Shown here piece after piece: positions 24,001 through 27,000 of a stretch of 64,000 nt of DNA. Numbering within the stretch: position 1 is the first letter of the stretch; each line of letters begins with the position of its first letter. The stretch lies in NCBI RefSeq assembly GCF_045037415.1, contig NZ_CP173438.1. One strand, 5' to 3'. The stretch is from Escherichia coli. GTDB lineage: Bacteria > Pseudomonadota > Gammaproteobacteria > Enterobacterales > Enterobacteriaceae. The position numbers were made by a program.

Positions 24001-27000
24001 AGGCGGGGCTGCAGGAGCTGGCGGGCAACGCTACCATGCTGTTCTACATGACGGAAGAAGGTCAGGAAGGTCGCAATGCTTTCAACCAGAAACGTCAGCC
24101 TGATTTCAGCAAATTTAAACGGAATCCGTAATGCGTAGCGCGCAGGTATACCGCTGGCAGATCCCCATGGACGCGGGGGTGGTTCTGCGCGACAGGCGGT
24201 TAAAAACCCGCGACGGGCTGTATGTTTGCCTGCGTGAGGGTGAGCGCGAAGGGTGGGGGGAGATCTCCCCACTGCCGGGCTTCAGTCAGGAAACCTGGGA
24301 AGATGCGCAAAGTGTGCTGCTTGCCTGGGTAAATAACTGGCTGGCAGGCGATTGCGAATTACCGCAGATGCCTTCCGTTGCCTTTGGCGTAAGTTGTGCA
24401 TTGGCGGAGCTGGCAGATACGCTCCCGCAGGCGGCCAATTACCGTGCGGCACCGCTGTGTAATGGCGATCCTGACGATCTGATCCTCAAACTTGCCGATA
24501 TGCCTGGCGAGAAAGTGGCGAAGGTCAAAGTGGGATTGTATGAAGCCGTGCGCGACGGCATGGTGGTGAATCTGTTGCTGGAGGCAATTCCGGATCTGCA
24601 TTTGCGTCTTGACGCGAATCGCGCCTGGACACCGCTGAAAGGCCAGCAGTTTGCCAAATACGTTAACCCGGATTATCGCCACCGCATCGCATTTCTCGAA
24701 GAGCCGTGCAAAACCCGCGATGATTCGCGTGCGTTTGCCCGTGAAACCGGCATTGCCATTGCCTGGGATGAAAGCTTGCGCGAGCCGGATTTTGCCTTTG
24801 TAGCTGAAGAGGGCGTGCGCGCGGTAGTTATCAAACCCACGCTCACGGGCAGCCTGGAGAAAGTACGCGAGCAGGTGAAGGCGGCGCATGCGCTGGGGCT
24901 GACGGCGGTGATCAGTTCTTCCATTGAGTCGAGCTTAGGTCTAATGCAACTGGCGCGGATTGCTGCCTGGTTAACGCCAGACACCATTCCGGGACTGGAC
25001 ACGCTGGATCTGATGCAGGTGCAGCAGGTTCGTCGCTGGCCGGGGAGTCCACTGCCGTTAGTGGACGTTGATGCACTGGAGCGGCTGTTATGATCTTCTC
25101 TGACTGGCCGTGGCGTCACTGGCGGCAAGTGCGGGGAGAAGCCATCGCCTTACGTCTTAATGACGAGCAACTCAACTGGCGCGAGCTTTGTGCTCGCGTC
25201 GATGAATTAGCCTCCAGCTTTGCGGCGCAGGGTGTGGTTGCGGGCAGCGGCGTGATGTTGCGGGCGTGGAATACGCCGCAAACGCTGCTGGCCTGGCTGG
25301 CGTTACTGCAATGCGGGGCGCGGGTGTTGCCCGTGAACCCTCAGCTGCCGCAACCGCTGCTTGAGGAATTGCTGCCCAATCTTACGCTGCAATTTGCGCT
25401 GGTGCCGGAAGGGGAAAACACGTTTCCGGCGTTAACGTCGCTGCATATTCAGCAGGTTGAAGGCGTACATGCCGTGGCGTGGCAGCCGACGCGTCTGTGC
25501 TCAATGACGTTAACCTCTGGTTCCACTGGCTTGCCGAAAGCCGCTGTTCATACTTATCAGGCTCATCTTGCCAGCGCCGAAGGGGTGTTATCGCTGATTC
25601 CGTTTGGCGATCACGATGACTGGTTGCTCTCTTTACCGCTGTTTCACGTCTCCGGTCAGGGAATTATGTGGCGCTGGTTATACGCTGGTGCGCGGATGAC
25701 GGTACGTGATAAACAGCCATTGGAGCAAATGCTGGCAGGCTGTACGCACGCTTCACTGGTGCCAACACAACTCTGGCGTTTGCTGGTTAACCGTAGTTCC
25801 GTTTCCCTGAAAGCGGTTTTACTTGGCGGCGCGGCTATCCCGGTCGAGTTGACGGAACAGGCGCGCGAGCAGGGGATTCGGTGCTTTTGCGGCTATGGTC
25901 TGACCGAGTTTGCCTCCACGGTGTGTGCGAAAGAAGCCGACGGTCTGGCAGACGTCGGTTCGCCGCTGCCGGGTCGGGAAGTGAAAATCGTAAACGACGA
26001 AGTGTGGCTGCGGGCTGCCAGCATGGCAGAAGGTTACTGGCGTAACGGGCAACGGGTTCCACTGGTTAATGACGAAGGCTGGTACGCCACGCGCGATCGC
26101 GGTGAGATGCATAATGGCAAGCTGACCATTGTCGGACGTTTAGACAATCTGTTCTTCAGTGGTGGCGAAGGCATTCAGCCAGAAGAAGTCGAGCGCGTTA
26201 TTGCTGCACATCCTGCGGTTTTGCAGGTGTTTATCGTTCCCGTTGCTGACAAGGAGTTTGGTCATCGACCGGTAGCGGTGGTGGAGTATGACCAGCAAAC
26301 CGTTGATCTTGGCGAATGGGTGAAAGATAAGCTGGCCCGTTTTCAACAACCGGTGCGCTGGCTGACTTTACCGCCGGAGCTGAAAAACGGCGGTATTAAA
26401 ATTTCACGTCAGGCGTTAAAAGAGTGGGTGCAACGCCAGGATTAAGAAATCATTAGTTTCACTTCGCAATTTTGCCATTCCATTGCCGTTGATAATAGGT
26501 TTATCTGTTAATCTGTAAATTGATGTGAAAACTCTTATCAAACAGGATAATGCAATGGAATGGCTGGTCAAAAAATCGTGCTGCAATAAACAAAATAACA
26601 GACATGTACTTATGCTCTGCGATGCTGGCGGCGCGATAAAAATGATCGCCGAAGTGAAGAGTGACTTCGCCGTGAAAGTGGGGGATTTACTCTCGCCTTT
26701 GCAGAATGCGCTTTACTGTATTAATCGTGAAAAGCTGCACACGGTGAAAGTTCTTTCTGCAAGCTGTTATAGCCCCGATGAGTGGGAACGGCAGTGTAAA
26801 GCGGCAGGGAAAACTCAGTAACGTTGTTTTGTTGTGGGCAGGAAAATCAGCATCAACCCGCTCATAATACAGGCTACTCCCAGTAGTGCTTTCAGCGAAA
26901 AAGTCCCTTCCCAGCCGGGAAGTACCATTGAAGCAATCCATACCAGCACATAACTCATACTGAGCAAGGCATAGGCTTTGCTTAGCGCAAGTTTATGTAG

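Follow-up and report, generated by a model that had tools for sequence, protein, structure and literature searches.

A 7-bp convergent overlap between pmrD and arnF in Escherichia coli and its probable consequences for transcription

We analysed a stretch of 64,000 nucleotides of an Escherichia coli genome (contig NZ_CP173438.1 of RefSeq assembly GCF_045037415.1; hereafter the window), and in particular the place where pmrD and arnF, two components of the PhoP-PmrD-PmrA-arn circuit, meet tail to tail. The pmrD coding sequence (CDS) lies on the plus strand at 26555..26821, from an ATG at 26555 to a TAA at 26819-26821, and encodes 88 amino acids (MEWLVKK...AGKTQ) according to both the open reading frame (ORF) list and the RefSeq annotation. 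Facing it on the minus strand at 26815..27201 is arnF, the last gene of the operon arnBCADTEF, which serves to modify lipid A, with an ATG at 27201, a TGA stop that reads TCA at 26815-26817 on the plus strand, and a product of 128 amino acids ending in TTKQRY. The two genes share the 7 bp TCAGTAA (26815..26821, both strands), which encode the third base of Thr86, Gln87 and the stop codon of PmrD on one strand, and the third base of Arg127, Tyr128 and the stop codon of ArnF on the other. This overlap had been reported in a first-pass annotation of the window, and it is borne out by the sequence, the ORF list and the RefSeq coordinates, produced by the Prokaryotic Genome Annotation Pipeline (PGAP), of an identical strain; since the CDSs overlap, the sequence leaves no space for a terminator between them, as had also been claimed. 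We consider it probable that this is the normal E. coli junction, with menE-pmrD facing arnFETDACB, that the overlap itself reflects neutral drift of stop codons, and that the transcripts of the two units overlap, the termination of arn being most likely Rho-dependent.

When PmrD was compared with the NCBIfam equivalog NF011994 it scored 176.1 bits (cut-off 96), and two solved structures of E. coli PmrD, 2jso and 4hn7, match residues 1-88 (E = 1.6e-55), with 97% identity to 2jso; the Pfam family PF11183 was found on all PmrD homologues. ArnF, a subunit of the undecaprenyl-phosphate-L-Ara4N flippase, scored 139.6 bits against the equivalog NF002816 (cut-off 99), and its gene follows arnE as the last of the arn operon. 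The window is collinear with NZ_CP196291.1 and RefSeq annotation transfers base for base to window coordinates, while PGAP places the same 7-bp overlap in three strains, namely the identical strain, a K-12 derivative and a divergent uropathogenic strain. We give next to no credence to the idea that the overlap is an annotation artefact, in which one of the ORFs would end elsewhere or would not be a real gene, for the stop codons are fixed by the sequence, both proteins exceed curated equivalog cut-offs, the structures cover the full 88 residues of PmrD, and the same gene ends occur in E. albertii and E. fergusonii. Nothing was found in favour of it, beyond the general point that annotation often goes wrong for short ORFs and for small membrane proteins. 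The junction is thus a convergent overlapping gene pair, formed by two real CDSs on opposite strands that have their 3′ terminal bases in common. Chance is the wrong null here. Four more convergent pairs lie in the window's first 50 kb, with gaps of 38-120 bp, so that pmrD/arnF is the tightest locally. The overlap is annotated, conserved and catalogued, and the idea that the transcripts overlap is also in print; both are already known.

The 0.9-kb pmrD-arnF locus was found in 5417 of 5426 complete E. coli genomes, and a 71-nt probe centred on the junction matched 5155 complete E. coli genomes, at an identity of at least 95% in 5144 of them. We measured the stop-to-stop distance on pmrD loci of other species and on ArnF-encoding contigs. 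It is -7 bp in E. albertii and E. fergusonii, with the same ends as in E. coli, and -6 bp in Salmonella enterica and S. diarizonae, where the overlap is the palindrome TCATGA and both genes stop with TGA (the 6-bp palindrome was seen at 2873-2878 on S. enterica contig L023 and also on L021). Citrobacter species have distances of 0, +2, +3 or +9 bp, and S. arizonae (L012) has +23 bp along with arnF and arnE genes that look degraded and pseudogene-like. In Pseudescherichia pmrD is absent and the arnF stop lies 7 bp from the convergent menE stop (L024 2887-2895 and L025 1205-1213), which leaves the arn operon without intergenic space for a terminator even where there is no pmrD. The exact 7-bp overlap is Escherichia-specific; the conserved property is thus an arn operon whose 3′ end abuts the convergent gene without a spacer, and not the overlap as such.

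Losses of arn genes on the junction side were also observed in genomes that keep pmrD. In Escherichia sp. MOD1-EC7003 (L004) arnF is reduced to residues 39-128, in E. coli SCPM-O-B-8794 (L006) only its last 22 residues are left, and in E. coli NZ_CM190131.1 (H1) an IS1 element is annotated beside a split arnF. The S. arizonae contig with degraded arnF and arnE likewise retains pmrD. In Intestinirhabdus alba (L019 3001-3258) menE-pmrD is kept and arnF, arnE and arnT are undetectable within 3 kb downstream, from which it follows that pmrD can persist beside menE without the arn operon.

The C-terminal tails of PmrD and ArnF vary by genus in length and in sequence. Since the NF011994 and NF002816 models stop at PmrD residue 85 and ArnF residue 122, short of the overlap codons, the overlap lies within non-conserved tails. 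Short convergent overlaps have been explained by the random extension of a 3′ end to the next stop codon (Kingsford 2007, cited in PMC3887535). The pmrD-arnF junction resembles this model in its few shared bases at the stops, its variable tails and the small positive and negative offsets seen in relatives; no difference from the model was detected, and the junction is as it would predict. Because no more than two terminal residues of either protein are involved, and these fall in tails that vary by genus, we read the exact overlap as the product of neutral drift.

Given the overlapping CDSs, a transcript that encodes full-length ArnF carries antisense sequence of pmrD, and the reverse is equally true. 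The entry of arn transcription into pmrD in antisense, which the first-pass annotation had proposed, is thus required by the geometry, and an overlap of the arnF and pmrD transcripts has been published (PMC12288877). The arn transcripts would extend antisense into pmrD and the pmrD transcripts, possibly with men read-through, antisense into arnF, neither unit being expected to end between the genes. No intrinsic terminator was found between pmrD and arnF by either a consensus scan or a hairpin-plus-U scan, and Rfam returned no family in 26000-27700, even at E <= 1. The consensus scan gave 5 sites against 2.4 expected; we treated as chance a terminator-like site at 26922-26907 on the minus strand, about 90 nt before the arnF stop, which has a 6-bp stem and a U-run 4 nt later.

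A candidate hairpin was found on each strand, in both cases inside the opposing gene. On the arn strand, CGGCGAAGTCACTCTTCACTTCGGCG followed by AUCAUUUUUAU (26636..26672, minus strand, hairpin at 26672-26647) is a weak candidate that lies within pmrD at a distance of about 145-180 nt from the arnF stop and has a predicted folding energy (dG) of -9.3. However, 23% of dinucleotide shuffles yield a hairpin at least as stable, the U-run simply mirrors conserved I/L-K-M codons on the opposite strand, and the structure is not conserved outside Escherichia in a comparison with Citrobacter and Salmonella; we rejected it as a demonstrated arn terminator on these three grounds. On the pmrD strand, GCATAGGCTTTGCTTAGCGCAAGTTTATGT followed by AGTGTTTTA (AGUGUUUUA; 26969..27007, plus strand, hairpin at 26969-26998) lies within arnF, about 150-185 nt past the pmrD stop, with a dG of -10.5 that is equalled by 5% of dinucleotide shuffles. 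Its equivalent folds in most Escherichia, Citrobacter, Salmonella and Pseudescherichia sequences, and on average it is 4.2 kcal/mol stabler than its counterpart on the arnF-sense strand, an excess that comes from G-U pairs. As the hairpin coincides with invariant ArnF codons its conservation may be driven by the protein, and we take it to be no more than a candidate.

In the first ~100 nt past each stop the C/G ratio is 1.4-2.0, compared with 0.93 for the median of the window and 1.38 for its 90th percentile. The lack of a conserved intrinsic terminator after arnF, taken with this untranslated RNA rich in C and poor in G, makes it most likely that arn termination is Rho-dependent and spread over the ~270-nt pmrD gene. 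For both units we prefer Rho-dependent termination over a few hundred nucleotides, although pmrD-sense transcripts may stop either at the hairpin and U-run ~150-185 nt into arnF or by Rho.

Some points weigh against the reading of neutral drift with Rho-dependent ends. Spacing that stays at zero across Escherichia, Salmonella, Citrobacter and Pseudescherichia could mean that overlapping transcription has been selected, and not simply that the junction is compact. For 16 of the 18 sequences the plus-strand hairpin in arnF is stabler as antisense, a hint of selection on an RNA element that would be unexpected if the drift were purely neutral. Finally, the positions and mechanisms of termination proposed for this locus are deduced from sequence only.

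The published transcript overlap comes from the ExcludonFinder study (Nucleic Acids Research 2025, PMC12288877), which lists arnF-pmrD among 165 convergent excludons of E. coli MG1655, on the criterion of presence in at least 50% of 58 MG1655 RNA sequencing (RNA-seq) samples, and singles it out as a functionally related pair in the same pathway. That study placed a transcript end wherever coverage dropped under 50% of the mean for the gene, so that an excludon call is nearly automatic for expressed genes with overlapping CDSs. The listing carries no direction, extent or condition of arn penetration into pmrD, and we accord it limited weight. Neither pmrD nor arnF has an entry in the supplementary tables of a Term-seq 3′-end map and of SMRT-Cappable-seq, and those of a study of p19-captured double-stranded RNA (dsRNA) and RNase III have none for pmrD, arnF or arnE. 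This absence is weak evidence, assuming low arn expression in standard media. As a catalogue entry, a convergent pair and a 3′ transcript overlap, arnF-pmrD is like the other MG1655 excludons, but what defines an excludon is that its two genes are expressed in a mutually exclusive way, by means of interference or RNase III, and this pair is known by its listed overlap. It also differs from an alternating excludon in that the pmrD and arn promoters are expected to be induced together in low Mg2+ (PhoP activating pmrD, and PmrD acting through PmrA on arn).

The units on either side of the junction are tightly packed. The arnBCADTEF operon (26815..34165, minus strand, annotation placed on window coordinates) is transcribed towards pmrD, and five of its six internal junctions (arnF/E, E/T, T/D, D/A and A/C, at 27201, 27533-27536, 29185, 30072-30075 and 32054) overlap by 1 or 4 bp, the usual pattern of translational coupling, while arnC and arnB are 3 bp apart. 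Taken with the pmrD overlap, there is no spacer at any gene boundary from arnC to arnF. A direct repeat resembling a PmrA (BasR) box, CTTAAGGTTAAGTTAAT (34264..34280, minus strand; YTTAAK-N5-YTTAAK with one mismatch), stands about 100 bp upstream of arnB, in what the literature on the PmrA regulon treats as the PmrA-dependent arn promoter region. On the other side menE, the last gene of the men operon (25090..26445, plus strand), is co-directional with pmrD and convergent with arn. The consensus scan detected nothing resembling a terminator from the menE stop to the pmrD start, so that men read-through may add to pmrD-sense transcription.

The menE-pmrD spacer, at 26446..26554 on the plus strand, holds the pmrD promoter and a PhoP-box-like repeat, CGTTGATAATAGGTTTA (26487-26503, plus strand), found in a search allowing three mismatches that is too permissive for anything beyond placing it. 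Upstream of it is a weak PmrA-box-like match with two mismatches (26441-26457, minus strand). The window contains 37 PmrA-box-like matches where 36.9 are expected by chance, and because the count equals the chance expectation we rejected this match as evidence that the pmrD promoter of E. coli contains a PmrA box. Two sigma-70-like matches on the minus strand (26492-26519 and 26544-26571) were seen in the region of the pmrD promoter and start, facing menE; they have the form TTTACA-16-TATTAT, with 10 of 12 positions matching, and the number of such sites is that expected by chance for the region. At the pmrD start itself, 26550-26562, three ATGs in three frames fall within 13 bases (ATGCAATGGAATGG), and the middle one alone yields PmrD; a pmrD 'start site array', with a Shigella mutation inside it, has been described in a preprint (10.1101/2021.07.26.453917).

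The window as a whole runs through nuoC-N, yfbM/L/K, rbn, elaAB, menFDHBCE, pmrD, arnFETDACB, ais, nudI and yfaZ, and onward to the glp genes. The sole Rfam family match in the whole window is the nuoG RNA cis-regulatory motif RF01748 at 3756-3798 on the plus strand, just upstream of nuoG (50.3 bits, gathering score 33). For 42092-43345, between yfaU and glpC, the annotation of the matching strain gives a transposase gene of the ISNCY family together with a hypothetical pseudogene that is truncated. K-12 presumably carries the yfaT-yfaA cluster around this yfaU-glpC region.

PmrD is the PhoP-activated connector protein of polymyxin resistance that guards phospho-PmrA, and a functional interference between arn and pmrD, which the first-pass annotation had raised, is plausible from the layout of the genes. 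On this view, the pair would be a functional excludon providing a negative feedback independent of promoters, where, once PmrA activates the arn promoter, polymerases reading through arnF would collide with or occlude transcription of pmrD, or would supply an antisense RNA leading to RNase III cleavage of pmrD mRNA, with a consequent fall in PmrD and phospho-PmrA. We consider this unlikely, though its probability is appreciable. The overlap of the transcripts is unavoidable and the pair is catalogued as a convergent excludon (PMC12288877); spacing is zero in every lineage that has pmrD beside arn; and pmrD is so short, at 267 bp, that termination of the Rho type, at 100-300 nt beyond the end of arnF, would presumably cover most of the gene and come near its promoter. 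E. coli also offers a precedent in mscL-arfA (PMC10070815), and a PmrA-dependent drop in pmrD mRNA is found in Salmonella, where the genes are convergent, and not in Klebsiella, where the context is another (PMC2565834; PMC3140997). However, spacing close to zero is also present between arnF and menE where pmrD is missing and is thus no peculiarity of the circuit, the exact offset shifts from one lineage to another, and the supplementary tables of the p19 dsRNA/RNase III and Term-seq studies contain no pmrD or arnF entry. The expected co-induction of both promoters in low Mg2+ would make of such interference a damper and not a mutually exclusive switch, and a promoter-level mechanism suffices for the sole documented case of PmrA-dependent pmrD repression, that of Salmonella.

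The species comparison needs some care. PmrA represses pmrD in Salmonella and not in Klebsiella (PMC2565834), but the Klebsiella pmrD context differs from that of Citrobacter, Salmonella and Escherichia (PMC3140997), so that the comparison with Klebsiella cannot separate a promoter-based mechanism from one based on convergent transcription. E. coli has been described in the literature as having no PmrA-pmrD feedback loop. The classical reporter strains carry pbgP (arnB)-lac insertions (Figure 2 legend). Such a pbgP (arnB)::lac insertion probably stops arn transcription short of pmrD and would thereby mask any interference. In the 2003 work of Kato et al., mutation of the PmrA site is said to have abolished pmrD repression.

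Interference could also act in the reverse direction, with PhoP-driven pmrD transcription and men read-through laying antisense RNA over arnF and arnE and so trimming the operon-distal flippase subunits, an explanation that we find quite improbable. It gains from the lack of anything like a terminator in the menE-pmrD spacer, and from the hairpin and U-run 150-185 nt into arnF, which folds in most relatives, is stabler on the pmrD-sense strand and would set a fixed length of antisense overlap with the arnF mRNA. Moreover, the excludon call was mostly made from RNA-seq under standard conditions, where arn is expected to be low, so that the overlap signal may be largely pmrD/men-sense. Yet this hairpin sits on invariant ArnF codons, its match rate among shuffles is 5% and not far lower, it falls under the scan threshold in the K-12 sequence, and its U-run begins 4 nt past the stem, an unfavourable spacing in an intrinsic terminator. 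A scheme that joins both directions would have the zero-spacer junction selected as a second, promoter-independent PmrA-PmrD feedback arm, in which arn read-through would lower PmrD by collision or antisense pairing and pmrD transcripts would end at the conserved antisense hairpin in arnF, tuning the flippase; we hold this to be distinctly unlikely. We retain the reading of a neutral overlap between units whose transcripts overlap.

The mscL-arfA pair (PMC10070815) is likewise arranged tail to tail in Enterobacteriaceae, has a transcript whose 3′ end is complementary to the 3′ coding region of its neighbour, and varies between CDS overlap and near-contact depending on the genome. In that pair, however, deletion and complementation revealed a more than 2-fold regulation, whereas pmrD-arnF is known from its sequence and its listing. 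The PmrA-box repression of pmrD in Salmonella, as the results of Kato et al. 2003 are relayed in PMC2565834 and PMC3140997, is similar in that active PmrA lowers pmrD in a negative feedback, but in those accounts it is attributed to PmrA binding at the pmrD promoter and not to convergent transcription. Unlike Salmonella, E. coli has upstream of pmrD only the weak, statistically unsupported PmrA-like box at 26441-26457. A further parallel is pmrR-basS (pmrB), where a PmrA-circuit gene takes part in a tail-to-tail CDS overlap of 25 bp (PMC8004244) that is also a listed excludon (PMC12288877); it is a separate locus outside the window, and such junctions therefore recur in the PmrA regulon.

As a feature of the genome, the overlap is explicable by neutral drift and is not a discovery. 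It has a practical side regardless of any regulation. Because the genes overlap and their transcripts must cross, non-strand-specific RNA-seq or random-primed reverse transcription quantitative PCR may score arn read-through as pmrD when arn is active. If it were true that arn read-through depresses pmrD, this would add an extra layer to the textbook case of connected two-component systems, which governs polymyxin and colistin resistance, and it could help to account for the differences between species in PmrD connectivity.

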